A stretch of DNA of 49,320 nt from a virus, in the IMG/VR virus record IMGVR_UViG_3300008050_000019; one strand, given 5' to 3'. Below the pieces are notes generated by a model that saw nothing but the letters and a program-made list of their open reading frames with translations, did no database searches and was not told the DNA's origin. Position 1 is the first letter of the stretch, and each line of letters begins with the position of its first letter. The position numbers and the translations under genes are program-made. Positions 1,237 to 23,322 of this stretch are shown piece after piece.

Positions 1237-1277
1237 TATTAAATATATTATAAATCAAGAAAAAACATTATTACATG

Positions 1278-1604: not shown

Positions 1605-1609
1605 TTAAA

Positions 1610-2092: not shown

Positions 2093-2096
2093 AAGA

Positions 2097-2168: not shown

Positions 2169-3043
2169 TAATAAAACTCATTATTCTTTACATCGTTGTA
2201 AAGCCTTAAAGGAATCTTTGTTTTTTGTGTTTTCATGATTGGAGCATCTAGACTCCACCACCCTTTTTCGTAAACAGTCCCAAGTTGTAGAATAAATTTC
2301 TGGAGCTGTGCCTTCGACCCTCCGACAAATGCTTTATTCATAGCATTTCTAACAACAACCGCTGATCGGGCTGTTCCTGCTTGGCTTAGCGCTATATATA
2401 ATGCTTTTGTAGCTTTTACAAGATCATGTGCCCGTGGCTCAATTGTATACTGGGGTCTGGCAACAAGAACGCATGCAAAAACTTGTTCTTCTTCTATACC
2501 GAGTATTTTCAAAGCTATAATTGCAGAGTTTATCGTCTCGCCTGTTTGTAATGAATCATCGACAAGAACAATCGTTTTGCCGATATATTCTTCTGGGATG
2601 CGTTCCGACGTTGCGGTCATTATATCATCCGCTCGTTTTAAATAAGATTGCTTTTTCTTAATAGAGAGGTCCGACTTTATTGTTAAAATATCTGATGCGG
2701 TTCCGCCAAAGTCTTGCTCAAGGCGTTCGGCCAATGCATACCCCCATTTATTTTTACCTGTTGTCGAAGGAACGACAATCCATAATGGATCTTCACCCTT
2801 AAACAAAGAAAATGCATTTTTATTTTTATTATAAAGGGTCTCGAACACTTCATTTGACTGCAGCGTAGAAAGACCAGGATCATCTTTTTTTGCCTTTATA
2901 AAAGCATCAAACTGTGTCTCTGATGCTACCCCTGTAACAAGCCTGTCTTTTACAGATGAAAGCCTTGATACAGGGGCTTCTAAAATTAATGAAATAAACT
3001 CTTTTATTACACTAGTCATTGTAACTATTTGAAGATCGTCCAA
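2168..3043 (-). CDS. phosphoribosyltransferase (PRT type I) domain protein
   Basis: PRPP-binding motif TIVLVDDSLQTGET; 291 aa. Confidence 0.65.
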   Translation of the reverse strand: MDDLQIVTMTSVIKEFISLILEAPVSRLSSVKDRLVTGVASETQFDAFIKAKKDDPGLSTLQSNEVFETLYNKNKNAFSLFKGEDPLWIVVPSTTGKNKWGYALAERLEQDFGGTASDILTIKSDLSIKKKQSYLKRADDIMTATSERIPEEYIGKTIVLVDDSLQTGETINSAIIALKILGIEEEQVFACVLVARPQYTIEPRAHDLVKATKALYIALSQAGTARSAVVVRNAMNKAFVGGSKAQLQKFILQLGTVYEKGWWSLDAPIMKTQKTKIPLRLYNDVKNNEFY

Positions 3044-3575
3044 AGACCTTTTTTACGTATTTTTGTGTTTCTTCGAATGGCGGAACACCACCATGGCGCC
3101 TAACGTTTGTTGGGCCAGCATTATAAGCTGCAACCGCACTTCGCAAATCACCTGGAAACATCTTTATAAGCTTCTTTAAATATCTTGCTCCGCCGTCGAT
3201 ATTTTGTGCTGCATCCCAAGGGTCTTTAACACCTAGATACTCTGCAGTTTTTGGCATAAGCTGCATAACACCAATGGCACCCACGCCTGAATTGGCCGAG
3301 GGGTTGTATCTAGACTCAGTCCATGCCATTGCGTCAAGAATTGTGTATGGAACTTTATGCTTGATAGCAGCTTTCTTAATTAAGCTTGCAATGTCGGATT
3401 TGCTATATTCGATAGCTTGCTCTGCCTTAGGTTCCGCTGCAGAAGTATCCATGGGCCCAGATAAAGCTGCGACAGTTGCCAATCCTGCTGCGGCACGTTT
3501 TAATGGGCCTTCGTCAATTTTGCAATCCATTGACTCTTGAATCATCCCCTTGAGGTCTTTAATTGATATCTTCAT
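3012..3575 (-). CDS. lytic transglycosylase, SLT domain
   Basis: AMAWTESRYNPSANSGVGAIGVMQLMP catalytic-region motif; 32-nt overlap with downstream gene. Confidence 0.75.
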   Translation of the reverse strand: MKISIKDLKGMIQESMDCKIDEGPLKRAAAGLATVAALSGPMDTSAAEPKAEQAIEYSKSDIASLIKKAAIKHKVPYTILDAMAWTESRYNPSANSGVGAIGVMQLMPKTAEYLGVKDPWDAAQNIDGGARYLKKLIKMFPGDLRSAVAAYNAGPTNVRRHGGVPPFEETQKYVKKVFGRSSNSYND

Positions 3576-3671
3576 ATCTATATATATAAGCAGCTAACAG
3601 AATTTGCACCCATACTTTCAACTTGGCAAGCTGATATGCTACTGTTAAACATCATAGCTGCATTAATTTCA

Positions 3672-3743
3672 CATTTCTGAAGAGATTCGAACTCCCATTT
3701 CGACGTTCGTAGCGCCGCGCTCTATCCATTGAACTACAGAAAT
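3672..3743 (-). tRNA. tRNA-Arg (anticodon ACG)
   Basis: acceptor ATTTCTG/CAGAAAT, anticodon arm CGGCG-CTACGAA-CGTCG, T loop TTCGAAT. Confidence 0.8.
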
Positions 3744-3746
3744 AAA

Positions 3747-3818
3747 CACTCACAGAAAGACTCGAACTTTCACGATCAGTTTAGAAGACTGAGATGCTAT
3801 CCATTACATCATGCGAGC
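3747..3818 (-). tRNA. tRNA-Arg (anticodon TCT)
   Basis: acceptor GCTCGCA/TGTGAGT, anticodon arm TCAGT-CTTCTAA-ACTGA, T arm GAAAG-TTCGAGT-CTTTC. Confidence 0.8.
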
Positions 3819-3821
3819 ATA

Positions 3822-3895
3822 TGCCCTCGGCCGGGTTTGAACCGGCACTTTTTGGAATTTGAACCCAATGACTCTACCAGTTGGTCTACGAAGGC
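3822..3895 (-). tRNA. tRNA with Leu-type anticodon CAA but short (class I) variable arm, A73
   Basis: acceptor GCCTTCG/CGAGGGC, anticodon arm TTGGG-TTCAAAT-TCCAA, 5-nt variable loop, T arm GCCGG-TTCAAAC-CCGGC. Confidence 0.55.
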
Positions 3896-3898
3896 AAG

Positions 3899-3972
3899 TA
3901 CCCCTAGGCGGATTCGAACCGCCAACACTCAGATTTTAAATCTGATAACTCTACCAGTTGGTTTATAGGGGC
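3899..3972 (-). tRNA. tRNA with Leu-type anticodon TAA but class I architecture
   Basis: anticodon arm TCAGA-TTTAAAA-TCTGA, T arm GGCGG-TTCGAAT-CCGCC; paralog of 3822..3895. Confidence 0.55.
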
Positions 3973-4355
3973 GAAATTTGACTAACTTTTTTAAAACAAA
4001 TGCATGTATTATATCTTGATACAATTATATCAAATGCATTTGTATGTTGGTCAGTGCGTATTACAATTTCTCTTTGTATTGAAAGGTTTATATCATGAAA
4101 TATAGAGCCTGTAGCATAGAAATCAGAGTCATAGTAAGACTTATATACGCTTTTATGCTTAACAGAATAAACGCAGAGCGAGACATCTTCCGCTTCTGCG
4201 TGATCAACATATAGAACTATCATAGGCTCATCTTTCTTTATAAAATGTGTAATATAGTTTATATACTTCGGAATCTTACTTTGAACAAGCTCCATCTCTA
4301 ATTCTTGAATATCATCTTTAAGAATAACAAGATCACCAGGAATAAAATCATTCAT
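3963..4355 (-). CDS. hypothetical protein (130 aa)
   Basis: six-frame ORF. Confidence 0.5.
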   Translation of the reverse strand: MNDFIPGDLVILKDDIQELEMELVQSKIPKYINYITHFIKKDEPMIVLYVDHAEAEDVSLCVYSVKHKSVYKSYYDSDFYATGSIFHDINLSIQREIVIRTDQHTNAFDIIVSRYNTCICFKKVSQISPL

Positions 4356-4356
4356 A

Positions 4357-4431
4357 TGACACTGAAGGGATTCGAACCCATACTGTTCTGGTCCTAAACC
4401 AGATGCCTCCTACCGATTGGGCTACAGTGCC
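4357..4431 (-). tRNA. tRNA with Leu-type anticodon TAG, class I architecture
   Basis: acceptor GGCACTG/CAGTGTC, anticodon arm TCTGG-TTTAGGA-CCAGA, T loop TTCGAAT. Confidence 0.5.
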
Positions 4432-4436
4432 GAAAC

Positions 4437-4507
4437 AGGCCGCCAGGGACTCGAACCCTGATTAAAAGATTTGGAATCTTTTGTGTTACCAATTACACTA
4501 ACGTCCC
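4437..4507 (-). tRNA. tRNA-Trp (anticodon CCA)
   Basis: D arm GTGT/ACAC, anticodon arm AAAGA-TTCCAAA-TCTTT, T arm CAGGG-TTCGAGT-CCCTG; imperfect acceptor. Confidence 0.6.
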
Positions 4508-4661
4508 AGATGAATGCGGTATGATCTGACTTCGATACTCTTATGGGCATATGATCTCCATAAGGCTCTTTCTACGGTACTTTATAGGCTACCAGATTGC
4601 AGGCGTTGGAGTGAATCCTAGCATACAAAAATATAACCGCTAAGTTATACTACACATTCAA

Positions 4662-4735
4662 TGCTTTTGAGTGGACTCGAACCACCAAACACCAGACCCT
4701 CGACCTGGCCGCTTGACCGATTAGCGTACAAAAGC
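4662..4735 (-). tRNA. tRNA with Leu-type anticodon GAG, class I architecture, C33
   Basis: perfect acceptor GCTTTTG/CAAAAGC, anticodon arm CCAGG-TCGAGGG-TCTGG, T arm GGTGG-TTCGAGT-CCACT. Confidence 0.5.
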
Positions 4736-4748
4736 TCTATCATATTTA

Positions 4749-5174
4749 CTACAAGAAATCACAAGGTGGCGCAACATCTTCATGTCGGCAACCTAGCAAA
4801 TGCCCAAGTTCATGTCTTATGGTTTCTCGTTTTGCTTTATTCTGAATAAAAACTTGCCGAAAGATTATTTTTCTGTTGTGTCTTGTTATCATTATACAAC
4901 CATAATATCCACACCTTCGTGGGAGTGTGTTTACGAATGCTACCGGCACAAGATCATCACTGTCATTGCAAAAAGGAGAAATTTTAAAAACTTTTTCTTT
5001 CATCTTCCTATTCCAGAAAATAACTTCTTCTTCAAAAGGCTTAAGTTTCTTGCTTGGTATATCATCTATAAACAAGCATACTGGAAAAATTCCCCCTTCT
5101 CTTACTTTTAAGTCTATTACTGTTTTGCAACTTAATAATGAAATTATTACCAATGTTAACAATACTTTCTTCAT
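4749..5174 (-). CDS. metzincin-like zinc metallopeptidase, predicted lipoprotein
   Basis: HELGHLLGCRHE (HExxHxxGxxH); N-terminal signal MKKVLLTLVIISLLSC with lipobox-like LLSC. Confidence 0.6.
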   Translation of the reverse strand: MKKVLLTLVIISLLSCKTVIDLKVREGGIFPVCLFIDDIPSKKLKPFEEEVIFWNRKMKEKVFKISPFCNDSDDLVPVAFVNTLPRRCGYYGCIMITRHNRKIIFRQVFIQNKAKRETIRHELGHLLGCRHEDVAPPCDFL

Positions 5175-5202
5175 ACTACTAATTATAGTAGCTTAATCTA
5201 AA

Positions 5203-5275
5203 AGGGCAAAGCGAGACTTGAACTCGCGACCAATCGGTTAACAACCGACCGTTCTAACCACTGAACTATTCACCC
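5203..5275 (-). tRNA. tRNA-Asn (anticodon GTT)
   Basis: D arm GTTC/GAAC, anticodon arm GTCGG-TTGTTAA-CCGAT, T arm GCGAG-TTCAAGT-CTCGC. Confidence 0.8.
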
Positions 5276-5364
5276 GATCGAGGGGGAATTATTCCCCCTC
5301 TTTTGTTATCCTTGCTTAACCTTCATATTTCTTCCTCCGGAAAATAATATCTCTATTATTTAAG

Positions 5365-5439
5365 CCCCCCGTATGAGATTCGAACTCATGATCTCTGCGG
5401 TGACAACGCAACGTCCACTCCTGACTGGACCGACGGGGG
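5365..5439 (-). tRNA. tRNA-Asp (anticodon GTC)
   Basis: perfect acceptor CCCCCGT/ACGGGGG, anticodon arm TTGCG-TTGTCAC-CGCAG, T arm ATGAG-TTCGAAT-CTCAT. Confidence 0.8.
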
Positions 5440-5540
5440 AAATAAAATTTTATTTGGTCGATGGCCCGGCAATCGCGAGCTTGCCAGTTTGACCCCAAAG
5501 CAGAGTCCGGTAACAGCCTTATCTCTCTGGTGCACATCGA

Positions 5541-5615
5541 TCTAGACGGCAGGGCTTGAACCTGCAAAAAACCTGACACGGAATCAGGCGCCACACCAAA
5601 TTTGTGGTCGTCTAG
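5541..5615 (-). tRNA. tRNA-like, possibly Arg (anticodon CCG); atypical
   Basis: perfect acceptor CTAGACG/CGTCTAG, anticodon arm CCTGA-TTCCGTG-TCAGG (pyrimidine 37), T arm GCAGG-TTCAAGC-CCTGC, shifted D arm. Confidence 0.4.
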
Positions 5616-5626
5616 TTAAAATCAAC

Positions 5627-5700
5627 TCTGGGCAAAGGGATTCGAACCCCTGTTCTCACGGTCCCAAACCGCGTGTGATACCAAACTTCACCATACCCAG
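5627..5700 (-). tRNA. tRNA-Pro (anticodon TGG)
   Basis: acceptor CTGGGTA/TGCCCAG, anticodon arm CGCGG-TTTGGGA-CCGTG, T loop TTCGAAT. Confidence 0.8.
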
Positions 5701-5704
5701 TGAA

Positions 5705-5791
5705 TTTGAAGAGTGGGATTCGAACCGCACATTTCCGACCCTTCTCGGCCGTGAGACAGGATTGGCGTGTTACCGCTAACACTATCTTTAA
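5705..5791 (-). tRNA. degenerate tRNA-like element (class II length), anticodon not assignable
   Basis: TTCGAAT T-loop signature and D arm GTGT/ACAC present but T stem and anticodon stem do not pair cleanly. Confidence 0.3.
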
Positions 5792-5794
5792 TTA

Positions 5795-5873
5795 CCCGTA
5801 TAGCGGGATTTGAACCCACGTCTTCGCCACCCCTTAGAGGCCGAACGATGTTTTACCCTTAAACTACCAACGG
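5795..5873 (-). tRNA. degenerate tRNA-like element, anticodon not assignable
   Basis: T arm GTGGG-TTCAAAT-CCCGC and D arm GTTT/AAAC; acceptor with 2 mismatches, no clean anticodon stem. Confidence 0.3.
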
Positions 5874-5878
5874 ATAAA

Positions 5879-5961
5879 TGAATGAGGAGGGAGTTGAACC
5901 CCCAAAGACCGAAGCCGGGTCGTTTACAGCGACTTGATTTTACCAATAACCATACTCATCC
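5879..5961 (-). tRNA. tRNA-Tyr (anticodon GTA), class II
   Basis: acceptor GGATGAG/CTCATTC, anticodon loop CTGTAAA, variable-arm hairpin CCG-GCTT-CGG, T arm GGGGG-TTCAACT-CCCTC. Confidence 0.65.
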
Positions 5962-6079
5962 AAAAAAGTAAAGATAGGTCTTTCACCTATATCTTCCCCC
6001 TCATACGGGAGCTGTTCTATTTTAAACTACTTTACTACGCTTATAACATACATCATTACCACTATATGTTATAAACAAT

Positions 6080-6150
6080 TGCGGATCCCAGACTTGCACT
6101 GGGCCCTGTGGCTTATGAGGCCACCGAGGTACCTATATCCTCCAATCCGC
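6080..6150 (-). tRNA. tRNA-Met-like (anticodon CAT), non-canonical T loop TGCAAGT
   Basis: acceptor GCGGAT/ATCCGC, anticodon arm GTGGC-CTCATAA-GCCAC, T arm CCCAG-TGCAAGT-CTGGG. Confidence 0.5.
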
Positions 6151-6219
6151 GTCAATGGTTTTAATGAGATCCGAAAACTCCATATTGGTCCCGCCGATGA
6201 TTAAAAAAGCTAAACCCAC

Positions 6220-6591
6220 TCAGGAACTTGGAAAGATAACGCTTTCGACATATACCTTCAAAAAATCTGATTTATCATCGTTATCATAGCCCCCTCTCGG
6301 AAACCCAAAACTCCTTGATAAAAGATATTTCTTAGTAACTAGTCCTGGTTCAAACTGTCCCTCAAAACCATAACATGAACAGTGTCCACCCCGATTCAGG
6401 AACAATTTGTCTGTCTTTCTTTCTCTCAATACAAACCAAGATCCAGAATCACACCCCCAGGAACCTTCATGTTGGTATGCAATTAAAATTTTGAAGCGGT
6501 TAAGCTCTGCCAATGTAATATCATAATCTCCACAAATTTGTTCTTTTACTTCGTCTTTCGACATTCCTTCATAATCAGCTAACAATAACAT
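6220..6591 (-). CDS. hypothetical protein (123 aa) inside tRNA block
   Basis: six-frame ORF, protein-like composition. Confidence 0.5.
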   Translation of the reverse strand: MLLLADYEGMSKDEVKEQICGDYDITLAELNRFKILIAYQHEGSWGCDSGSWFVLRERKTDKLFLNRGGHCSCYGFEGQFEPGLVTKKYLLSRSFGFPRGGYDNDDKSDFLKVYVESVIFPSS

Positions 6592-6650
6592 AACAAACCC
6601 TCCGTATTATACAGAAATGCTTAGCGTTTGCTATATACTATTAACTAAAA

Positions 6651-6725
6651 TCCCCCCACCAGGACTCGAACCTGGAACCTCCGGCTTAAAAGGCCATTGC
6701 ACTAATCCAGTTGTGCTATGGAGGG
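6651..6725 (-). tRNA. tRNA-Lys (anticodon TTT)
   Basis: acceptor CCCTCCA/TGGGGGG, D arm GCAC/GTGC, anticodon loop CTTTTAA, T arm CCAGG-TTCGAGT-CCTGG. Confidence 0.7.
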
Positions 6726-6726
6726 T

Positions 6727-6799
6727 TTATAAGGGAAGAATTCGAATCTTCATTTCCCGCTTTAATCGTGCGGGTGTACTACCATTATACTACCTTATG
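6727..6799 (-). tRNA. tRNA-like with C1-A72 mismatch and 9-nt anticodon loop ACGATTAAA; identity ambiguous
   Basis: T arm GAAGA-TTCGAAT-TCTTC, D arm GTAT/GTAC, anticodon stem CCCGC/GCGGG around a 9-nt loop containing TTA. Confidence 0.4.
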
Positions 6800-6952
6800 G
6801 TTGTCATATGAAGAGTTTATACTTCAATTCCTCAATCCAAATGAGGCGCGATATTTTCACCAATATGACGATTTTAGATATTAACCTAGGCTATGAACCT
6901 ATATCCAATGCAACACTGCTATTGCAAAGGCCGGAATATATTTAATATCTAA

Positions 6953-7027
6953 TGGGATTACCGGGATTCGAACCCGGATCTGTCCGATTAAGAGTCGGCT
7001 ATATTAACACATTAATACTATAATCCC
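6953..7027 (-). tRNA. tRNA-Lys (anticodon CTT)
   Basis: perfect acceptor GGGATTA/TAATCCC, anticodon loop CTCTTAA, T arm CCGGG-TTCGAAT-CCCGG. Confidence 0.7.
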
Positions 7028-7078
7028 AATTTACATTTTATTCAATTTTCAAAGAAACAAATCACAAAATGATTTGAA

Positions 7079-7163
7079 TGAGGAACCTGAGGATCGAACT
7101 CAGTTGCACCCTAAGGCGACCAGGTTTACAGCCTGGGTTATCTCCATAATAATCTAGTTCCCC
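7079..7163 (-). tRNA. tRNA-Tyr (anticodon GTA), second diverged copy, class II
   Basis: acceptor GGGGAAC/GTTCCTC, anticodon arm CCAGG-CTGTAAA-CCTGG, long variable arm, T arm CTGAG-TTCGATC-CTCAG. Confidence 0.55.
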
Positions 7164-7252
7164 GTAATCATGAATGGCTTTAATCATCCAGTGTGTAGTT
7201 ATTATAACTCATTAGTTATCAAATTACAACATTTTTAAATTTTATTTTCATA

Positions 7253-7324
7253 AGATTGAGATGAGACTCGAACTCACAATCTTGGTTTTGCAGACCAAAG
7301 CCTTAACCATTTAGCTACTCAATC
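7253..7324 (-). tRNA. tRNA-Cys (anticodon GCA)
   Basis: perfect acceptor GATTGAG/CTCAATC, anticodon arm TTGGT-CTGCAAA-ACCAA, T arm GTGAG-TTCGAGT-CTCAT. Confidence 0.8.
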
Positions 7325-7326
7325 GA

Positions 7327-7398
7327 TGGTGCTACCTGGTAACGCTCCAGGATCTTCTGTTTATCAGACAGACGTTCATACTTCCCTACTATAGCACC
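7327..7398 (-). tRNA. tRNA-Ile-like (anticodon GAT), non-canonical T loop AGCGTTA
   Basis: same body as 1087..1158 (acceptor GGTGCTA/TAGCACC, T arm CCTGG-AGCGTTA-CCAGG) but anticodon arm TCTGT-CTGATAA-ACAGA. Confidence 0.5.
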
Positions 7399-7402
7399 AA
7401 AA

Positions 7403-7474
7403 CGCTTTTTAGTGGATTCGAACCACTACATCTGGTACTTCACACCAGCATGCTACCGTTAACATCAAAAAAGC
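7403..7474 (-). tRNA. tRNA-Phe (anticodon GAA)
   Basis: perfect acceptor GCTTTTT/AAAAAGC, D arm ATGT/GCAT, anticodon arm CTGGT-GTGAAGT-ACCAG, T arm AGTGG-TTCGAAT-CCACT. Confidence 0.8.
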
Positions 7475-7724
7475 ATAAATCCTATTACAACTAACTAGCC
7501 TTTTGGGCCTGTAATTGGCACCCGTTCTCTCAGCGGGTGTTATATTAACGAATGTTAATACATCCTCTAGCCAGCAGCTTAATTAAAAGCAGGATATTTC
7601 TCGCAATCAAGGTCTAGCGATGGTTTCGACCCATCTTCTGCACCCACTGCAGGTGTGCCGTAATACTTCTATACGAGCTAGACTTATTTCTTTTATATTT
7701 TCTTCCAATTTTTATGTAACATTA

Positions 7725-7793
7725 TGGAGAAGACGGGTAACGCTCCCGCTCATTCCGGTGTGCAAAACCAGATGCTATCCTTATAGCTTCCCC
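7725..7793 (-). tRNA. tRNA-Ala-like (anticodon TGC), short D arm, T loop AGCGTTA
   Basis: acceptor GGGGAAG/CTTCTCC, anticodon arm CTGGT-TTTGCAC-ACCGG, T arm GCGGG-AGCGTTA-CCCGT. Confidence 0.5.
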
Positions 7794-7797
7794 AATA

Positions 7798-7871
7798 AGC
7801 AAGTAAGGGGATTCGAACCCCTACATCAAGAGTGGAAATCTTGCATGCTATCCATTAAACATCATACTCGC
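7798..7871 (-). tRNA. tRNA-Gly (anticodon TCC)
   Basis: acceptor GCGAGTA/TACTTGC, D arm ATGT/GCAT, anticodon arm CAAGA-TTTCCAC-TCTTG, T arm AGGGG-TTCGAAT-CCCCT, U73. Confidence 0.8.
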
Positions 7872-7968
7872 ATACTCGATTTTGTTTTAACCTCATCATG
7901 TTAAATAATTATATAACATTTTTTTTCATTTAACACTTAATTTAAAACAAAATTGAAATTCTTATTCT

Positions 7969-8154
7969 TTAATCAGCAAACTTGTGAATGTTCCCACCCA
8001 CCTTCGTAACCATATTCTGAATGAACTCAGCACGCCCCAGAGCCCGCCAAGCAATTTTTAGTTCATCATCAATACGCTGGGTTGCATCCTTGATGGTTTC
8101 CTTTAACTTTCTAAAAGACTCTTCCATCTCTTGGTCAGTTTGATCATTACTCAT
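7969..8154 (-). CDS. hypothetical small protein (61 aa)
   Basis: six-frame ORF between tRNA genes. Confidence 0.35.
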   Translation of the reverse strand: MSNDQTDQEMEESFRKLKETIKDATQRIDDELKIAWRALGRAEFIQNMVTKVGGNIHKFAD

Positions 8155-8201
8155 AATTTATTTTATCACCTATAATATCCAATGACATATTTTATTTTTA
8201 A

Positions 8202-8288
8202 CGGAAGGCAGAAGGATTGAACTCCATCCACTTTTAAGAACCCACTGATTAGCAAACAGCGACCAGAACCAATCTGGTATTACCTTCC
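8202..8288 (-). tRNA. tRNA-Ser (anticodon GCT), class II
   Basis: acceptor GGAAGGT/GCCTTCC, D arm CCAG-ATTGGTT-CTGG, anticodon loop TTGCTAA, long variable arm. Confidence 0.65.
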
Positions 8289-8293
8289 AAAAG

Positions 8294-8407
8294 TTACGTT
8301 ACCAGGAGTCGAACCTGGCTTGTCAACCAGACACCAGATGAAAACATCTTGAATGGATTCGAACCACTATTACTCGCGCGCAGAGTATATACCGACTTAC
8401 TAACGTA
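8294..8407 (-). tRNA. irregular or nested tRNA-like locus (two T-arm signatures inside one perfect 7-bp acceptor pairing)
   Basis: TACGTTA (8401..8407) pairs perfectly with TAACGTA next to T arm CCAGG-TTCGACT-CCTGG (8302..8318); a second T arm AGTGG-TTCGAAT-CCATT lies between. Confidence 0.3.
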
Positions 8408-8413
8408 ACCAGA

Positions 8414-8486
8414 GGTACTCGAAGGGGATTGAACCCTCATCGTTCGGACCACAGCCGAAAGCTCTAACCATTGAGCTACGAGCACC
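8414..8486 (-). tRNA. tRNA-His (anticodon GTG) with genome-encoded G-1
   Basis: acceptor GTGCTCG/CGAGTAC preceded by G, D arm GCTC/GAGC, anticodon arm TTCGG-CTGTGGT-CCGAA, T arm GAGGG-TTCAATC-CCCTT. Confidence 0.8.
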
Positions 8487-8491
8487 ATAAA

Positions 8492-8563
8492 AGCCTGCGA
8501 GAGGAATTCAACCCCCATTTCTTGATTACAAAACAAGAGTAATAAGCATTATACTACACAGGC
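8492..8563 (-). tRNA. tRNA-Thr (anticodon TGT)
   Basis: acceptor GCCTGTG/CGCAGGC, anticodon loop TTTGTAA, T loop TTGAATT (G56). Confidence 0.6.
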
Positions 8564-18919: not shown

Positions 18920-19090
18920 CCTGTACAGTCTCTGATTTTCCACTGTCGAAAATAAGTGAATTTAGCTGTATCTATTTCCTCGAGCCTGTGTTACTATATT
19001 CTTACCAGGTCAGGAATGGCACTGGGAAAACGGAGTTTAAATAATTATAAAATAATCCTGTTCTTTGAACCGAGATTGTGTTATAATATT
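18920..19090 (+). repeat. ~170-bp direct repeat, copy 1 (promoter-bearing leader of GC-rich paralog 1)
   Basis: cctgtaca..ccactgtcgaaaa.aagtgaa...ctgtatctattt...taccaggtcaggaatggcactg..gagtttaaataattataaaataatcctgttcttt..gagatt.tgttataat recurs at 21470..21640. Confidence 0.7.
19077..19087 (+). promoter_or_regulatory. extended -10 promoter TGTGTTATAAT
   Basis: matches the window-wide consensus TGTGTTATAATATTCTTA; 56 nt upstream of ATG 19144. Confidence 0.55.
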
Positions 19091-19143
19091 CTTACCAACT
19101 GGGGAGCTTAAAACCTTCCCCCCAAACAGAAAGCAGAGTCACT

Positions 19144-19671
19144 ATGACCTTCAAATTTACCGTCGGACAAACCTACAACGTCATCGACGAGAAGGGAGCC
19201 CGCGTCAACAAGGCCGGTGTGGTCGCCATCTCCGAACGGGAGAACAAGGGTGTCCTTACTCCTGACATGGACCTTGAGTACATCGGGAAGGCCGCCAAGG
19301 ACACGCCCCAGGCCGGACACCACATGTTCAAATTGCCCGAGGGTGTTGAAATCCTGGGTGAGACCACGATCGCCGGAGTCCGAAACCACTTCGACTTCAA
19401 TGCGGCTTACGTTCAAGCCAAGAAAAATATCCCGACCAAGGGGACGCTGCAGGAGCGTGCCGACGAGGCCACTCGCCAAGCGGAAGCAGCCAGCGACCAT
19501 GCCGAGAAGCTGCAAAGGATTGCTGCAGACCTGAGGGTCGAAATCCTCTGCCTCCAAGCGGATGAGCAGAAGGCTGCGGAGGCTGCGGCTAAGACACAGG
19601 CCGAAATCGACGCCTCCTGGGATGAGGCTGAGGCACAAGCCTCAGGGTACACCACCAACGCCCCAGAGTAA
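19144..19671 (+). CDS. GC3-rich paralog family member 1 (175 aa, N-terminal conserved domain and Ala/Glu-rich C-terminus)
   Basis: GxTYNVI..KGA...PDMDL.Y.GK...HH.F.LPEGV..LG..TI.G..NHFD shared with 21873..22409 and 40570..41214; GC-rich codons in an AT-rich genome. Confidence 0.7.
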   Translation: MTFKFTVGQTYNVIDEKGARVNKAGVVAISERENKGVLTPDMDLEYIGKAAKDTPQAGHHMFKLPEGVEILGETTIAGVRNHFDFNAAYVQAKKNIPTKGTLQERADEATRQAEAASDHAEKLQRIAADLRVEILCLQADEQKAAEAAAKTQAEIDASWDEAEAQASGYTTNAPE

Positions 19672-19684
19672 TGGGCACTGGGAC

Positions 19685-19712
19685 GGGGGAGGGAAATCTC
19701 CCCCTTCTCTTT
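19685..19712 (+). terminator. intrinsic terminator
   Basis: 7-bp G/C stem GGGGGAG/CTCCCCC, loop GGAAAT, then TTCTCTTT, 14 nt after stop of 19144..19671. Confidence 0.6.
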
Positions 19713-19784
19713 ATGGTAATGAGGATTGACTTCTTTGCCATAAAGAGGATTGACACCCCTCTGTATTCTTCCCGACCATTCCCT

Positions 19785-20183
19785 ATGAAAGTGGGTATTC
19801 TCTTGTCGCAACTAAAATGTAACGCTGTATTCTCCTTCTCACCTGGTGGTTCTGTGCGTGCAGTCATCACCGGTGACAGGCCAGGTGAGCATTCCTTCAA
19901 ACCTGACCTTGATCGCTCTCTAAACGAGAACATCTACGATTTCCTGCATTCCCAAGGGAATGGTGAGGGTCTAGAATTTATCATTCAGGCAAGGCATTTC
20001 CTGACCTCTCCCAAGAACGCCGAGGGTAAGTTCCACTGGTCCACTCGTGATTCTGTGGGACACGAATCCATTGAGGTTTCCTATGTGGGTATCCCCAAGA
20101 ACGCTGGATTCTCCGATGTCGTTTCCGCGTTCTTTCCTGGCCTGGCTAAACGCCGGCAACCTCAGGCAGCTGCCTGTTCTTGA
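19785..20183 (+). CDS. hypothetical protein (start uncertain)
   Basis: ORF 19671..20183 overlaps a terminator; internal ATG at 19785 keeps frame (MKVGILLSQ...). Confidence 0.3.
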   Translation: MKVGILLSQLKCNAVFSFSPGGSVRAVITGDRPGEHSFKPDLDRSLNENIYDFLHSQGNGEGLEFIIQARHFLTSPKNAEGKFHWSTRDSVGHESIEVSYVGIPKNAGFSDVVSAFFPGLAKRRQPQAAACS

Positions 20184-20714
20184 TGGTTCGTGACATTCTG
20201 GTCAACCCGTCGTTCTTCATTCCTGATGCCTGCCTTTCTGCTGGACTATTCCTCATCCGGTACCCATTCCTGCTCACCAGTCTAGTCTAGCCTAGCATTC
20301 TTCAGGATTCCTGCCATTACCACGTTCCTCCATCAGGAATGCCCAGAGCCATGAGGCTCCTTTCTGGTCCTTCCGGATAGGAATGATGATGGATTCCACA
20401 TCCCGCCATAAATGAGCACCCGGGCATTCCTGTAACACTGGTCAAGAGCGCTTGTTCCTCATATTTCTAACCCTTTGTAGTCTCGCCTCTTTCTTGGCTT
20501 CGCGCCTTTTCCTGCGGGCATTCCTGGCTATGGCCTTTCTTGGCCAGCTCATAAATACAGAGAACGCTATGCAGATTCCCATCACGATTACGAAGACGGG
20601 ATCAAACATGCGAGTGTTCTGTGGTTGCGGTTGCGGTTGCTTCTTCCGCTCCCATCTGGTCCACCAGCAAAATCCTCAACCCAAGGCTTGGAGCTTCAAG
20701 CCCTCTTTCCTCAA

Positions 20715-21038
20715 TCACCTGTTATACACACCTTCAATTGGGTGTGGTGTGGGCTTGATGTCCCAACCTTGGCGTGGCTCTACGGTGAGGTCAGCCCCTT
20801 GAAGTGGGATGACACGCCATCTCGTTCGGGAGTTACGTAGCGTATCAAACGAATCAAGAAACATTTCTAGCGCTGCTTCCGGCGTTTCTGCTGCGTACAC
20901 GCCCTTAAACATGTGGCCGTAGCTTGCCTTACAGATCTTCTCAGGGTCGGCATCTAAAGCGACCTGGAGTATCATCCAAAGAGGCAGCCACGATCCGGCC
21001 CTGGATGTATGAATATGAATTCCCTGCTTACTTGTCAT
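20715..21038 (-). CDS. hypothetical protein, leaderless start
   Basis: TGTGATATAATATTCCT immediately precedes ATG on minus strand; 3' end runs into motif-dense GC region. Confidence 0.4.
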   Translation of the reverse strand: MTSKQGIHIHTSRAGSWLPLWMILQVALDADPEKICKASYGHMFKGVYAAETPEAALEMFLDSFDTLRNSRTRWRVIPLQGADLTVEPRQGWDIKPTPHPIEGVYNR

Positions 21039-21085
21039 AGGAATATTATATCACAGGTGATTGAGGAAAGATACAACTAAGTGAT

Positions 21086-21391
21086 TTATTGTTTATCCCT
21101 TGGTAGAGATCTTCCAGGTCCCGAGGTAAATGACCTCGGTTTGTACGTTTCTGTGCCTGGCCGGAGTGGGATGCTGCCTTCACTTTTCACTTCCCAATCA
21201 TCGCCCATGATCTCAGCCACCGTGGCGTCAGTGCCCGCTATCCACTCCTGTCTGGTGAACGTAAGATTGTGCGCAGCCCTAGAAAGAAGAACTCCATCCC
21301 ACTTCAAGTTTGAAGCGAATGTGTTCGCTGGTGCCGCGAGGTTCACGTAGACTGGGTGCTCCCGTGTTGCAGGGATGTCGGTCAACTTCAT
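21086..21391 (-). CDS. hypothetical protein, leaderless start
   Basis: TGTGATATAATATTCTT-ATG on minus strand; upstream conserved GTATCTTTCCTCAATCAC box shared with 20715..21038. Confidence 0.45.
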   Translation of the reverse strand: MKLTDIPATREHPVYVNLAAPANTFASNLKWDGVLLSRAAHNLTFTRQEWIAGTDATVAEIMGDDWEVKSEGSIPLRPGTETYKPRSFTSGPGRSLPRDKQ

Positions 21392-21469
21392 AAGAATATT
21401 ATATCACAAGTGATTGAGGAAAGATACCATTAAGTTCATTATGATTTATTTTCAATTAGCAGAGAAAAA

Positions 21470-21640
21470 CCTGTACAAGGCACGAAATTCCACTGTCGAA
21501 AAAGAGTGAAAATAACTGTATCTATTTTTCTGAGCCTATGATACCATATTCATACCAGGTCAGGAATGGCACTGAGTAAATACTGAGTTTAAATAATTAT
21601 AAAATAATCCTGTTCTTTTGAATGAGATTATGTTATAATT
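21470..21640 (+). repeat. ~170-bp direct repeat, copy 2 (leader of GC-rich paralog 2)
   Basis: see 18920..19090. Confidence 0.7.
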
Positions 21641-21810
21641 GAAAGGACGGAGGAGATAGAAACGGTACGGAAATAAAAATTAATATATAAATAAAAAAAC
21701 CTTTTAAAATAACCGAGTTTATGTTATAATAATCTTACGGAAACGGAGCAAAAACAAAAAACTTAAATATTAAATATAAATAAAACAAACCTTTTCTCGG
21801 TACCGAAACC

Positions 21811-21820
21811 GTGTTATAAT
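21811..21820 (+). promoter_or_regulatory. promoter GTGTTATAAT (last of four stacked promoter-like boxes 21530..21830)
   Basis: boxes ATGATACCATATTC, ATGTTATAATTG, ATGTTATAATAATC, GTGTTATAATAATC in tandem before ATG 21873. Confidence 0.5.
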
Positions 21821-21872
21821 AATCTAACAACGGGGACCTAATAAATCCTCCCTAACACAAAGGCAAATACAT

Positions 21873-22409
21873 ATGGCTATCTCACTCATCGTCGGCAACA
21901 CCTACAACGTCATTGGGGCGAAAGGGGCGTTTACCAACGCGCAGATTATGGTGGCGATTTCCGAGAACAAGCAGGTCGGCCTTGTCACCCCTGACATGGA
22001 CCTGAAATACCTCGGGAAGCTTGCGGGCGGCAAGAGCGGCGGGAAGCATCACACCTTCCAACTCCCCGAGGGAGTAACCGTGCTGGGCAGCAACACCATC
22101 GTGGGACACCCGAACCACTTCGATGTGGCAGCAGGGTACAACGCGAACAAGGTTGGGGCGACCAAAGGGACCCTCGCCGAGCAAATCGCCACGGCATCCC
22201 GCAATGTAGCGGAAGCCCAGGCTCACCTGGCACGAGCCCAAGGCCGCATGGCAGAACTGGAGCAGAAACGAGTCGAGACCGAAGCGGGCATCGAAAAGGC
22301 AGCCGCCGAAAAGGCGAAAGCCGGGCCCTGCACCGTCTTCACCCCCGAGGAGATCGCTGGGTGGGAGCAAATGGAAGCTGAGCGAAAGGCCGCCGCTTCC
22401 GCTGAGTAA
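21873..22409 (+). CDS. GC3-rich paralog family member 2 (178 aa)
   Basis: conserved N-terminal domain shared with 19144..19671; Ala/Glu/Lys-rich C-terminus. Confidence 0.7.
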   Translation: MAISLIVGNTYNVIGAKGAFTNAQIMVAISENKQVGLVTPDMDLKYLGKLAGGKSGGKHHTFQLPEGVTVLGSNTIVGHPNHFDVAAGYNANKVGATKGTLAEQIATASRNVAEAQAHLARAQGRMAELEQKRVETEAGIEKAAAEKAKAGPCTVFTPEEIAGWEQMEAERKAAASAE

Positions 22410-22421
22410 TCAATAACCTCC

Positions 22422-22455
22422 GGGGAGGGCTCACGCCCTCCCCACTTTCTCTGTG
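22422..22455 (+). terminator. intrinsic terminator
   Basis: 9-bp stem GGGGAGGGC/GCCCTCCCC, loop TCAC, then ACTTTCTCT. Confidence 0.6.
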
Positions 22456-22653
22456 TTCTTAATGAGTATTCTTGCGCTGACCCTGGTATATCCTTGGTCA
22501 TGGAGTTCCGCCCATTAAGAACACAGAGAGGGTCTCTGGGTTCCCCCCTTTGATTCTTCGTGACCATTCCATGGTTACATACCCATGATAGTTCTCGTTA
22601 TTCTGGTTAAGAGCCAGTGTTCTCTGTGACTGTCCTACCACCATTCCTTAGGA

Positions 22654-23148
22654 GTGTTCTCTGTGATTAACTGCGAAGCTGTATTCTCCCTAATTCCCAC
22701 GCCGGGTGTTTCTGGCCCTGGGAATTCTGTCAAGATGGTTGTTCTTAATGGGCGTTCTGAAGAAAGGATCTGGCCCACTGCGTTCCTGCCTGGTGTTTCT
22801 TTGGCTGAGATGGCTGACAACATTCTTCGGACCATTCTTCCGACCAAGACCCAGGATATCCTGGTTGAGGAAACTATCATCCTTCCTGACGGGACTGTTA
22901 CAGTATTCTTCAGTCTCACCAATCCAGATGAGCCCATTCTCCTGACGGAGCCCTATGTTCCGGTTGACGACCAGGATATTCTGCATGTGGTTCCCTTCGT
23001 TCCGAATTCTTCAGAACTGGCGTCTATTCTCTCTTCACTGGAGAATGCCAGGTATGATATTCCGGACAATTCCGCATTCTCAAAGAATGGTCCCGTCGTC
23101 ATGGTTCCTTGGGAACCAATGATTTGTGTCCAGCGTCCCCGGAAATAG
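22654..23148 (+). CDS. hypothetical protein (164 aa) in GC-rich island
   Basis: six-frame ORF; preceded by GTGTTCTCTGTGA direct repeats. Confidence 0.4.
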   Translation: MFSVINCEAVFSLIPTPGVSGPGNSVKMVVLNGRSEERIWPTAFLPGVSLAEMADNILRTILPTKTQDILVEETIILPDGTVTVFFSLTNPDEPILLTEPYVPVDDQDILHVVPFVPNSSELASILSSLENARYDIPDNSAFSKNGPVVMVPWEPMICVQRPRK

Positions 23149-23322
23149 CATGATCACTCAGCTAAAAACTTTTTTCATAAATCCCCTTGTGCTGGCTTTG
23201 CTGGTCATCTTTCCGGCTAGCCTGTACGGGGGTAAGGGAGTTTATTTCTTGCTTAGCCTTCTGTAGCCCAGCATTCCCTCTCTAATAATGTTGTAATATT
23301 TTTGTATCTTTCGGGGTATGGC

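Follow-up and report, generated by a model that had tools for sequence, protein, structure and literature searches.

Strand-biased arrays of a short pyrimidine word follow genes of an orphan protein family in a viral genome

Arrays of short sequence words titrate, load or block proteins in cells and on plasmids, as is the case for CsrB, iterons, parS-type sites and stoperators. The 8-bp TGTTCACC type I iterons of P4 ori/crr are unevenly spaced, T7 carries the SRL/SRR heptamer arrays near its terminal repeats, the first-step-transfer DNA of T5 has non-coding regions rich in repeats, and type III antitoxins consist of exact 34-36-nt tandem repeats upstream of the toxin gene. Iteron clusters have been given a general definition (PMC2777425), while CsrA sites are defined by a GGA in a hairpin loop (PMC7652899). 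The repressor sites of mycobacteriophages are asymmetric dsDNA sites, the orientation of which follows transcription, and these stoperators affect elongation (PMC9283540).

The viral DNA analysed here (IMG/VR record IMGVR_UViG_3300008050_000019, 49,320 nucleotides, referred to as the window) stems from a giant phage and contains such an array, which is tied to an uncharacterised protein family. The original prediction described a dense cluster of an 8-mer at 20180-20560 and took it for an iteron-like array, either a replication origin or a regulatory hub. Our analysis revealed that this cluster comprises the most densely packed, non-coding portion of a longer array of the word RTTCY on one strand. 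The array probably provides a sequence-specific factor with multiple docking sites and is less likely to be an origin of replication. The features of the window are as follows:

18985-19143, plus strand: leader of gene A1 with two promoter-like sites, their -10 hexamers starting at 18992 and 19082, CAGGAATG at 19011-19018 and the boxA-like CTGTTCTTTGAAC at about 19058-19070
19144-19671, plus strand: gene A1, 175 aa, followed by tract 1
19671-20183, plus strand: ORF B1, 170 aa, within tract 1, start position uncertain
19685-19704, plus strand: GC-rich, terminator-like hairpin after A1, GGGGGAGGGAAATCTCCCCC then TTCTCTTTAT
19765-20580, plus strand: tract 1, RTTCY-rich, 3' of A1, with 24 copies on the plus and 7 on the minus strand
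20184-20441, plus strand: non-coding core of tract 1, intergenic between convergent genes and corresponding to the originally predicted cluster, with CATTCCTG at 20218 and 20265, ATTCCTG at 20307, CAGGAATG at 20334 and GGGCATTCCTG at 20422-20432
20442-21391, minus strand: genes converging on tract 1 at 20442-20609 (55 aa), 20715-21038 and 21086-21391
20516-20526, plus strand: GGGCATTCCTG with the fifth exact 8-mer copy, inside the 55-aa minus-strand ORF 20442-20609
21465-21872, plus strand: leader of gene A2, matching the A1 leader at 83% identity over 176 nt and containing CAGGAATG at 21561-21568
21873-22409, plus strand: gene A2, 178 aa, paralogous to A1 with 44% identity
22422-22443, plus strand: GC-rich hairpin GGGGAGGGCTCACGCCCTCCCC after A2
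22455-23110, plus strand: tract 2, the second RTTCY-rich region, with 31 copies on the plus and 6 on the minus strand
40570-41214, plus strand: gene A3, 214 aa, a third paralogue, followed by a hammerhead ribozyme and no RTTCY tract

The cluster proved to be real and far above chance, but it had been overstated. Exact copies of the 8-mer CATTCCTG/CAGGAATG number five between 20218 and 20526 (20218, 20265, 20425 and 20519 on the plus strand, 20334 on the minus strand) and ten in the whole 49-kb window, and with at most one mismatch there are seven in 20180-20560, the two added copies being GATTCCTG at 20306 (plus) and CATTCCTA at 20378 (minus). The claim of ten or more 8-mer copies was too high, as the ten examples given for it are looser cores, of which ATTCC occurs nine times and ATTCCT eight times in the region. 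In local dinucleotide shuffles of 20180-20560, 0.03 exact copies were expected and five or more were reached in 0 of 2000 shuffles, so that the observed number clearly exceeds what the local composition would give; ATTCC (9 compared to 1.26 expected) and GGCATTCCTG (3 compared to 0.00) behave in the same way. When all strand-collapsed 8-mers were scanned without bias, the CATTCCTG cluster ranked first in the window with five copies in 400 nt, and the best 8-mer cluster in block-wise shuffles (n=40) had three copies in 38 cases and four in the other 2. The longest recurring string is GGGCATTCCTG, with 11 nt and three copies. The absence of a convincing ORF holds for 20184-20441, where each of the six frames is either closed or short and codon scores are negative throughout; the remainder, however, comprises the end of B1 (20180-20183) and a stretch (20442-20560) that overlaps the uncertain 55-aa minus-strand ORF, the coding score of which is ambiguous.

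The feature also extends further than originally drawn, since the cluster is only a part of the strand-specific tract 19765-20580, and a second tract follows at 22455-23110. On the plus strand, RTTCY occurs 24 times in tract 1 compared to 6.2 expected (p<0.002), with 17 copies of [CG]RTTCY compared to 3.1, and 31 times in tract 2 compared to 5.9 expected (p<0.002, shuffles). Tract 2 consists of a non-coding part (22410-22662) and the ORF B2 (22663-23148), and in the non-coding parts of the two tracts 10 copies compared to 2.0 expected (20184-20441) and 11 compared to 2.3 (22410-22662) were counted, both with p<0.002 in shuffles. Peaks of such height are found in the 49 kb only at these two tracts, which are 2.7 kb apart. 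The word in reverse orientation remains at background in all regions counted, save a mild excess in tract 1, and no enrichment of RTTCY was seen in the shuffle test of the upstream intergenic controls, the A genes and the leader. The copies are separated by irregular gaps of 3-49 nt in both tracts. In its longer form the word reads (G)C-R-TTC-Y, and in places GGGCATTCCTG, and TCTCTGTG, with four copies, is the recurrent 8-mer particular to tract 2. In B1 and B2 the word is present in all three reading frames, and the frames differ between the two ORFs; in related loci, the ORFs directly 3' of the tract contain it at twice the background density. This points to the nucleic acid, and not a protein, as the carrier of the signal. 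The pyrimidine fraction of the sense strand rises at every locus from 0.41-0.45 in the A genes to 0.51-0.59 in the tracts (0.44 in A1, 0.59 in tract 1). Gene A and its tract also form a GC-rich island (0.49-0.55) within a genome of 0.34-0.41, with 52% GC in the tract and about 34-41% in the flanking regions, as would be expected if both move together. Among the word-bearing sequences, GCATTCCTG, GAGCGTTCTC, GGGCATTCCTGATG and GTATTCTCC are candidate binding targets.

Both tracts begin shortly 3' of a GC-rich hairpin, which itself lies 3' of A1 or A2, and a related hairpin (GGGGAGGG..CCCTCCCC) is found 3' of A2 and of several homologues. The structure model of A (pLDDT 92) predicts a small SH3/KOW/Tudor-type barrel of five strands and, in addition, a long helix; in A1, the SH3-like N-domain is predicted to be followed by a helix of about 65 residues and a short tail, and the tail of A proteins is usually acidic. 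This fold class often contacts nucleic acids, which points weakly to A as a possible binder. Pfam and PDB profile searches with A were empty, A1, B1 and their neighbours belong to no Pfam or PHROG family, and no Rep, helicase, primase, winged-helix, HTH or RHH signature was detected in A and its neighbours. A is an orphan family of uncharacterised function, with members that are followed by a tract. B1 is probably coding and, judged by these families, likewise an orphan. Both B1 (p=0.04) and B2 (p=0.005) are longer than shuffles predict, and their in-frame codon scores are positive (for B1, +0.03 in frame compared to -0.2 off-frame); a word-index protein database search with B2 matched B2 alone, and neither ORF is similar to those 3' of the tract in related loci. 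The occurrence of CAGGAATG in both duplicated leaders, pointed out in the original prediction, was confirmed, and the match between leader and cluster is a single 8-mer without extended complementarity. On the minus strand, the ORFs 20715-21038 and 21086-21391 have leaderless-type promoters (TGTGATATAATATTCYTATG), and the operon promoters are located at 21050 and 21403. A link between the word and a promoter or discriminator was considered and dropped, because the promoters of high-GC relatives do not contain the word; the promoters of the window follow TAYAAT-ATT[A/T/C]TTAGGAA, of which ATTCTT is merely one variant.

A profile search yielded about 14 distant A homologues with 23-40% identity, located on unrelated contigs of 44-68% GC, while a word-index protein search with A1 matched only A1 itself. 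In the non-coding gap 3' of the homologue, sense RTTCY was counted 11 times compared to 2.4 expected in L010 (60% GC, tract at 4589-4992), 18 times compared to 3.3 in L014 (57% GC) and 13 times compared to 2.3 in L018 (68% GC). By counts only, L020 and L021 (64-65% GC) contain 3-4 sense copies per 200 nt after A, and L024 (locus 44% GC) has a weak peak of four per 200 nt right after A. The enrichment in L008 (38% GC) is weak with 9 copies compared to 4.7 expected (1.9x, p=0.02), and the tract is absent 3' of A3 and of the homologues in L011, L017 and L025. We define the cassette as an A homologue followed by a G/C-run hairpin, which occurs 3' of A in the window as in the relatives, and by a sense RTTCY tract of at least four times the shuffle expectation; this arrangement, with a tract of 0.4-0.9 kb and 2-4 sense copies per 100 nt, was found in shuffle tests for A1, A2, L010, L014 and L018 (3.9-5.7x), and L020 and L021 fit it by counts and sequence only. 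Several relatives share the extended consensus G-R-G-C-R-T-T-C-Y, and in L010, L018 and L014 the first copy overlaps the stop codon of A (cTGAGCGTTCTc / cTGAGCATTCCc). The word, its position and its orientation have been kept while the genomes drifted from about 38% to 68% GC, which suggests strong selection on a specific molecular interaction, and its conservation beside A in phages so distant speaks for a sequence-specific factor that recognises it. With a specific, non-random word kept beside the same gene family, the binding-site array or regulatory hub of the original prediction appears reasonable.

The eight contigs containing A1 are 99.9-100% identical over the region and therefore offer no population variation to use, and L020 and L021 are 95% identical, with too few substitutions to gauge selection on the word. 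INPHARED contained no nucleotide relatives in near or distant mode, scans of IMG/VR with A1, P0007 and P0013 gave no matches, and tblastn of P0013 against phage records gave none either. A GTDB scan returned a single relative, in an element of a Myxococcota MAG, without a tract. The alignments of A1, P0007 and P0013 are too diverse for pattern scans. A 17-nt string common to L010 and L024 (GGGATTCCCCTAGAGCG) was discarded, as the IMG/VR scan led to unrelated coding matches only.

By any criterion that can be tested on a sequence, the feature is not a replication origin. Iteron units are near-identical copies of about 17-22 bp; the unit shared here comprises 5-8 nt (11 at most), its flanks do not align, and the copies are irregularly spaced in both tracts, without any preferred period, whether of 10-11, of 21-22 or of another length. 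The label iteron-like is not supported. No AT-rich unwinding element adjoins the tract, the nearest AT-rich sequences being the promoter leaders at 21.4-21.7 kb, and instead of a cluster of DnaA boxes there is a single box with one mismatch nearby, at 20722. No initiator gene is recognisable beside the tract, the N-domain of A being an SH3-like barrel, and the cumulative GC skew, proposed as a check of the origin, shows neither a turning point nor an inflection at 20 kb. The nearly one-stranded copies, which run in the direction of transcription through non-coding and ORF sequence alike, are more in line with an element that acts on the transcript or is coupled to transcription than with an origin.

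The explanation that we favour, if only tentatively, is a transcription-oriented, multi-copy recognition array inherited together with gene A, acting as a landing pad or sink on the early transcript. In this proposal, a factor specific for a short pyrimidine word in single strands of nucleic acid would read the tract in its transcribed direction, either in the early transcript or in the non-template strand where this is exposed. The foremost candidate would be the co-inherited A protein with its SH3-like barrel, long helix and usually acidic tail, and binding could decide the fate of the region between A and the downstream genes by read-through of the hairpin, by processing or decay, or by titration of the factor. 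As the hairpin after A is terminator-like, the tract may be transcribed by read-through only, and since co-orientation with A could also reflect inheritance as a unit, action at the RNA level and at the dsDNA level are not strictly separated by it. Structural tests at the RNA level gave ordinary results. Rfam returned no match in the tracts at gathering score, none at E<5 in 18-24 kb and none in the related gaps; the folding z-scores of 20184-20441 are not significant (-1.45 plus, -0.95 minus), and pairwise and three-way alignments revealed no alignable conserved secondary structure across the tracts. A sponge with accessible loops was rejected, because the unpaired probability of the motif is not raised, and if anything lower, in 8 of 9 segments compared to flank-shuffled controls. 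Mimicry of a T-loop, an anticodon or boxA and a mini-hairpin GRG-CRUU-CYC were also set aside, since the copies, judged by eye, fit them inconsistently.

Rather unlikely is a dsDNA array of asymmetric protein sites, either a stoperator-like roadblock in which a dense cluster would halt RNA polymerase that has started at the strong A promoters, or a cluster of short iterons serving replication or copy control beside the gene of its binding protein, comparable to P1 repA-incA and P4 ori/crr. The direct repeats of a specific word adjoining a conserved gene, the presence of two clusters 2.7 kb apart and the inverted copies of tract 1, which form small palindromes (TTCCTccatcAGGAA, GGAATgatgatggATTCC, ATTCCCaaGGGAAT), are consistent with it, asymmetric dsDNA sites with an orientation that follows transcription are known for mycobacteriophage repressors (PMC9283540), and the RNA-accessibility test lent the RNA sponge no support. 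However, the core is degenerate and only 5-7 bp long, its spacing of 3-49 nt is without helical phasing, the unwinding element, DnaA-box cluster and skew inflection are missing, A and its neighbours contain no HTH, RHH, winged-helix or Rep domain, and the sites run on inside ORFs in all frames; moreover, stoperators are 13-mers dispersed over the genome and not clustered (PMC9283540). Less probable again is that the tract is targeted by a general RNA factor of the host instead of a phage-specific protein. In this case it would uncouple A from the downstream genes as a Rho-loading back-up terminator (compare lambda cro-tR1), as a set of endoribonuclease sites or as a decoy for a UUCCU-type toxin RNase. 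This would agree with the pyrimidine-rich sense strand, with C outnumbering G in each of the tracts (C/G ratios of 1.33 and 1.16 for the window and of 1.34, 1.04 and 1.16 for the relatives, compared to 0.84-1.04 for the A genes), with the UC/CC dinucleotides supplied by every word and with untranslated RNA directly after a leaky-looking hairpin, 3' of tandem strong promoters. Furthermore, hairpins abut the 5' side of the word in the relatives more often than expected (42% compared to 31%, p=0.004), but the window itself shows no such excess, and modules of the type 'hairpin + UUCY' were discarded because the excess in the relatives is only modest. RNase E prefers RN|CNU / RN|WUU, with which the GRG-C-R-U-U word would be compatible, yet each of these two forms would place the cut elsewhere in the word. 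Rut sites are not known to follow a specific consensus, and a conserved 7-9-nt word in phages of 38-68% GC exceeds the needs of Rho; predicted pairing of the tracts is ordinary to high, and in L014 and L018 G is not really depleted and the tracts are predicted to be highly structured.

It is very doubtful that the word has no function of its own and is a by-product of unusual coding or composition, with B1, B2 and a decayed extension of B1 being genes rich in Ile/Val/Phe-Pro/Leu/Ser codon pairs, or a relic of local duplication. The lengths and codon scores of B1 and B2 would suit the coding variant, as would the 3' half of B2, where most words lie in one frame (xTT-CYx), and the flanks of some 8-mer copies are alike (D5, D6, D8). 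The offsets between similar flanks are inconsistent, however, the word frames of B1 and B2 differ, B2 matched only itself in the database search, B1 belongs to no Pfam or PHROG family, and both ORFs are unrelated to the post-tract ORFs of the relatives. In addition, dinucleotide-preserving shuffles abolish the enrichment, which is strongest where all frames are non-coding (20184-20441 and 22410-22662) and strong also in the clearly non-coding gaps of high-GC relatives; that the non-coding tracts of independent loci share the word argues strongly against a by-product. The least probable explanation, which we rejected, is a sponge on the minus strand that titrates CsrA/RsmA. The minus strand of 20184-20441 contains three copies of CAGGAAUG, which resembles the CAGGAUG repeats of CsrB, and several AGGAA, a fourth copy is located at 20519-20526, and the region lies downstream of the minus-strand operon with its promoters at 21050 and 21403. 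Reversed, however, the family word is RGAAY, and about half of the copies, being AGAAC or AGAAT, are without GGA; no antisense promoter lies close to tract 2 or to the tracts of the relatives, which are co-oriented with gene A, and folding is ordinary. The sense strand has no GGA motif, the motifs are not presented in loops, and there is no covariance-model match to CsrB, RsmY or RsmZ even at E<5. The architecture of a GGA in a hairpin loop (PMC7652899) was not seen.

The landing pad or sink inherited with A remains the preferred explanation, and a bolder reading, which we regard as unlikely, takes two forms. A and the tract could be a new type of protein-RNA pair that is self-contained and horizontally mobile, in which A, as an early SH3-like-barrel protein, would recognise GCRUUCY and a long cis-encoded transcript with 15-30 copies of the word would buffer or direct it. 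Alternatively, the transcript might act early in infection as a decoy, sequestering a universal host RNA factor or a defence RNase that cuts UUCCU. Both forms would amount to a phage analogue of CsrA/CsrB or of type III toxin-antitoxin systems, built from unrelated parts and common to phages with hosts of 38% to 68% GC. If A is the ligand, a testable protein/nucleic-acid pair with a defined 7-9-nt target would emerge from huge-phage dark matter, and if a host factor is the ligand, the tract could be an early-expressed decoy or the timer of an early-to-middle switch.

Among the known systems, the type III toxin-antitoxin systems (ToxIN, CptIN) differ from the tract, the word of which is short, irregular and downstream; neither 34-36-nt tandem repeats upstream of a ToxN/AbiQ/CptN-family gene nor sequence similarity of A to ToxN, AbiQ or CptN was found. 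Iteron clusters beside an initiator gene (P1 repA-incA, P4 ori/crr, plasmid origins) likewise consist of direct repeats adjoining a conserved gene and may occur as two clusters a few kb apart, but the tract has a core of 5-7 nt with nearly all copies on one strand and lacks the AT-rich unwinding region, DnaA boxes, regular phasing and Rep, helicase or winged-helix protein. The T7 and T5 arrays are similar in being irregular short-word arrays in non-coding DNA near strong early promoters of lytic phages, but they lie upstream of these promoters near the genome ends, whereas the array described here is downstream of the first early gene. Lambda cro-tR1 shares untranslated RNA with C over G right after the first gene of an early operon, plausibly as a timing device; its rut site has no defined repeated word, in contrast to the tract, which is 5-10 times longer and predicted to be structured in GC-rich relatives. 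The stoperators of cluster A mycobacteriophages (L5 gp71-type) are asymmetric, transcription-oriented and present in more than 20 copies (PMC9283540), and the sense-strand excess in all tract-bearing loci corresponds to such an oriented, asymmetric site. Stoperators are, however, 13-mers found genome-wide with one per short intergenic gap and bound by an HTH repressor, while here a shorter word is packed into 0.4-0.9 kb, in the window as two tracts of 0.7-0.8 kb with no HTH protein nearby. From CsrB, CsrC, RsmY and RsmZ the tract differs in its pyrimidine-type RTTCY word instead of GGA, which is not preferentially in loops or unpaired, in its position in cis after a protein gene, from where it spills into ORFs, and in that no CsrA-like protein was identified. 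With these RNAs it shares many short, degenerate words, irregularly spaced over a few hundred non-coding nucleotides, and the logic of a sink in which many sites capture an RNA-binding protein (PMC7652899).

The same core word extends well beyond 20180-20560, the interval for which at least ten copies of an 8-mer had been reported. That count was too high, since five of the ten exact CATTCCTG/CAGGAATG copies in the window lie within 20218-20526 (four on the + strand, one on the - strand) and the interval holds seven copies with at most one mismatch, nine ATTCC cores and eight ATTCCT cores. The clustering itself is real: 0.03 exact copies are expected, none of 2000 dinucleotide shuffles reaches five, and the 10-mer GGCATTCCTG occurs three times in the interval as opposed to essentially zero in dinucleotide shuffles. 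When the post-hoc choice of the word was removed by computing the largest cluster per 400 nt for every 8-mer, CATTCCTG ranked first in the window with five copies, compared with a maximum of three or four in 40 block-wise shuffles. CAGGAATG was also recovered in the duplicated leaders, at 19011 and 21561. The absence of a convincing ORF holds for 20184-20441, where all six frames are closed or short and the score is non-coding, but 20442-20609 contains a 55-aa - strand ORF of uncertain reality, whose N-terminus resembles a transmembrane segment and whose tail is basic.

Counted per strand in 250-nt bins over the 49 kb, RTTCY forms only two peaks, 19751-20600 and 22440-23250, both exclusively on the + strand with 7-13 copies per bin compared with about one elsewhere. 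These regions, tract 1 (19765-20580) and tract 2 (22455-23110), follow A1 and A2, two of three paralogues of the orphan gene-A family. The relevant features of the window are as follows.

400-8563, - strand: array of 26 tRNA genes
18992, 19082, 23328, 26156, 27118, 27534, 34954, 39523 and 39774, + strand: examples of promoter-like consensus sites
21050, 21403, 28212 and 38028, - strand: examples of promoter-like consensus sites
19144-19671: gene A1, tract 1 beginning right after it
19685-19704: GC-rich hairpin GGGGGAGGGAAATCTCCCCC between A1 and tract 1
21873-22409: gene A2, tract 2 beginning right after it
22422-22443: GC-rich hairpin GGGGAGGGCTCACGCCCTCCCC between A2 and tract 2

Tract 1 contains 24 RTTCY words against 6.2 expected from local dinucleotide shuffles and tract 2 contains 31 against 5.9; the non-coding pieces alone give 10 against 2.0 and 11 against 2.3. 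Enrichment is strongest for CATTCC, TTCCTG, GCATTC, GTATTC, ATTCTC and ATTCTTC, whose reverse complements are rare. The spacing is irregular (3-49 nt), no periodicity at 3, 10.5 or 21 nt was found, and the tracts do not align with one another. Tract 2 has a recurrent 8-mer of its own, TCTCTGTG (22448-22670, + strand; four copies, one inverted), which builds a 16-bp perfect inverted repeat CTCTGTGTTCTTAATG/CATTAAGAACACAGAG at ~22449-22530.

By standard definition, an iteron origin combines an AT-rich region with iterons to which a replication protein binds (PMC2777425), and the original prediction of an iteron-like array or replication origin fails on the length of the unit, its phasing, the AT-rich element, the DnaA boxes and the initiator domain. 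Rfam gave no match to a known RNA family even at permissive thresholds, and a structured RNA was rejected on ordinary folding z-scores (-1.45 and -0.95). Hairpins that end directly 5' of the word are modestly in excess in the relatives (42% vs 31%, p=0.004), with no excess in the window. A promoter element was likewise discarded: promoters of the window read GTATCT-N17-TGTGTTAYAAT-ATT[A/T/C]TTAGGAA-ATG, so that ATTCTT is just one of several variants, and the promoters of the relatives lack the word. This phage promoter-like consensus, GTATCT-N~17-TGTGTTAYAAT-ATTNTTAGGAA-ATG, is strongly conserved in the window, and several genes (21038-, 21391-, 27546+) begin 6-7 nt past the -10 hexamer, which points to leaderless or very short-leader mRNAs.

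No close relatives of A1 were found, and a HMMER profile of A1, A2 and the third paralogue A3 against 1.8 billion representatives retrieved about 14 distant homologues (23-40% identity), whose contigs were fetched for comparison. In the GC-rich loci L010 (60% GC), L014 (57%), L018 (68%) and L020/L021 (64-65%), the A homologue is the first gene after two to four tandem sigma-70-like promoters located where transcription diverges, and behind it come a G/C-run hairpin and a gap of 400-800 nt, where gene calling gave nothing longer than a 29-codon antisense ORF. These gaps are dense in GCGTTCT, GCATTCC, ACATTCT and CGTTCC on the sense strand. In L010, L014 and L018, they contain 11, 18 and 13 sense-strand RTTCY words compared with 2.3-3.3 expected (p<0.002), the reverse orientation does not exceed expectation, and the first word shares bases with the stop codon of A. 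Upstream intergenic stretches of equal length from these loci, the A genes, and the sequence following A in L011 and L017 showed no enrichment. Alignment of the instances yields G-R-G-C-R-T-T-C-Y as the consensus of the GC-rich loci and, for the window, a weaker (C/G)-N-G-C-R-T-T-C-Y-T. A weaker version of the tract occurs in L024 (locus 44% GC; the second A paralogue on a 106-kb contig whose other fetched stretch has 35% GC) and in L008 (38% GC); the tract is absent from L011, L017 and L025, a Myxococcota prophage-like element. In ORFs just 3' of the gaps, the word is twice as dense as background and falls in all frames, and at every locus the sense strand is rich in purines within A and turns rich in pyrimidines in the tract. 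This comparative sequence evidence indicates that gene A, hairpin and RTTCY tract are one conserved cassette.

The post-A hairpin arms GGGGAGGG/CCCTCCCC, an SD-like arm paired with an anti-SD-like arm, are constant across loci (window 19685-19704 and 22422-22443; L008 ~1030-1052; L010 ~4597-4640; L020 ~735-757) whose A proteins are merely 25-40% identical. An identical 17-mer, GGGATTCCCCTAGAGCG, is shared by L010 (~4935-4951) and L024 (~3805-3821, with a variant at ~4266), thus by contigs of 60% and 44% GC; each copy shows the order hairpin, 17-mer, RTTCT, SD sequence and ATG of the next gene, and an IMG/VR scan for it returned only unrelated coding matches. Upstream of A, L010 (3400-4000), L014 (2510-3085) and L018 (1590-2240) carry two to four tandem promoters GGTGCAT-N~16-(G/T)TGGTATAAT and, at the divergence point, a GGCCCC-rich conserved block ..ggccccacaNacagtg..ggccccgttaggggccc..; this area could serve the GC-rich relatives in regulation or as an origin. 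The contig of L011 and L024 (SPJK01022676.1, 106 kb, 35% GC), a related large phage, encodes near one A paralogue an eIF-1A/IF1-like gene (PF01176), a NUDIX gene, an AAA ATPase and three tRNAs. In L025/L028 (MAG Myxococcota bacterium, JANQQN010000029.1), the A homologue has a basic rather than acidic tail and adjoins a tyrosine integrase and a tRNA-like sequence; this integrated element is the sole hint to the host lineage of the A family.

The window derives from a ~309-kb metagenomic contig (ENA ERZ27249009 k141_306648), and other metagenome assemblies (ENA, JGI 3300010150, Logan) contain nearly identical fragments. The genome looks like that of a huge phage, encoding a peptide deformylase, an SLT lysozyme domain and a trypsin-like protease, with only remote protein-level similarity to PA5oct-like jumbo phages and no nucleotide match among deposited phages. 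Its tRNA array includes two tRNA-Tyr, two tRNA-Asn, five tRNA-Leu and a tRNA-Ser(UGA) scored as tRNA-Sec-like by Rfam. The 18-23 kb region is a GC-rich island (GC 0.49-0.55 vs 0.34-0.41 in the flanks), consistent with import and duplication of the cassette. Within it, a 62-nt repeat (85% identical; 21035-21096 and 21388-21449) forms the promoters of two unrelated - strand genes, and gene 20715-21038 is bracketed by a 23-nt inverted repeat (96%; 20704-20726/21049-21071).

A1 and A2 are 44% identical, and their leaders, 83% identical, each contain two promoter-like sites. Between both promoters lie CTGTTCTTTGAAC/CTGTTCTTTTGA (~19058-19070 and ~21610-21621, + strand), which by eye resemble Gram-positive-type boxA antitermination elements. 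A3 (40570-41214) has no RTTCY tract and is flanked instead by type II hammerhead ribozymes. Four matches (40403-40464, 41228-41290, 41750-41814 and 42240-42303, + strand), scoring 37.7-40.8 bits against a gathering score of 37, separate the small genes around A3, as if an operon transcript were cut into single-gene pieces. In L008, a CTGATGAGACAGG core without an Rfam match lies in the gap after the A homologue. Upstream of the first hammerhead, two direct ~70-nt units (40180-40310, + strand; ..atcNNNNgaRccaagacagtgttaatataaaccaacaa..) with AAATAAAG repeats in between resemble duplicated promoter-like sequences.

The AlphaFold model of A is confident (pLDDT 92) and predicts a five-stranded small barrel (residues 1-95), a single ~65-residue helix and a tail; several homologues, among them P0005, P0007 and P0013, have an acidic tail. 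Invariant residues group in I-S-E, Y46 and G-H-R-N-H-F-D. Foldseek gave no significant match for the model, and Pfam, PHROGs and PDB sequence profiles returned nothing. The predicted fold class is compatible with binding of short single-stranded nucleic acid, which in itself proves nothing.

Taken together, the data show a multi-copy, oriented array of a word that is under selection and co-inherited with gene A. A coding or compositional by-product is very unlikely. The ORFs B1 (19671-20183) and B2 (22663-23148) inside the tracts may be genes, because they exceed the length expected from composition (p=0.04 and p=0.005) and their in-frame codon scores are weakly positive, on a par with poorer real genes of the window; no homologues were found by a protein search with B2 or, for B1, in Pfam and PHROGs, and their mutual similarity is limited to 38 residues at chance level. 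However, RTTCY is read as TTC-Yxx and xxT-TCY in B1 and mostly as xTT-CYx in B2, so the word is laid over the sequence, coding or not, and is not the consequence of a protein motif. A CsrA sponge on the - strand is the least plausible explanation, since about half of the copies of the general word RGAAY lack GGA and the orientation tracks gene A, not any antisense promoter; moreover, loop presentation is the defining trait of CsrA sites (PMC7652899), whereas it is absent from the tract words.

As a possible reading, we tentatively favour a recognition array that works at the transcript level or coupled to transcription and serves as a landing pad or sink. A would be the most economical candidate for its ligand, and the array would control read-through, processing or titration between A and the genes after it. 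The main rival, which we regard as rather unlikely, is a dsDNA array of asymmetric sites, i.e., a stoperator-like roadblock cluster or short iterons. In its favour, motif accessibility does not exceed flank-shuffled controls and is slightly lower in 8 of 9 segments, which gives the RNA model no help, and mycobacteriophage stoperators show that dsDNA sites can also follow the direction of transcription (PMC9283540). A host-factor zone, whether for Rho loading, as a set of RNase sites or as a decoy of a UUCCU-type RNase, appears unlikely.

Reading the cassette as a protein-RNA pair or decoy is doubtful. None of the libraries and papers searched contained the RTTCY word, its link to an orphan SH3-barrel protein family or its retention in phages spanning 38-68% GC; arrays of short recognition words as such are an already known kind of element.
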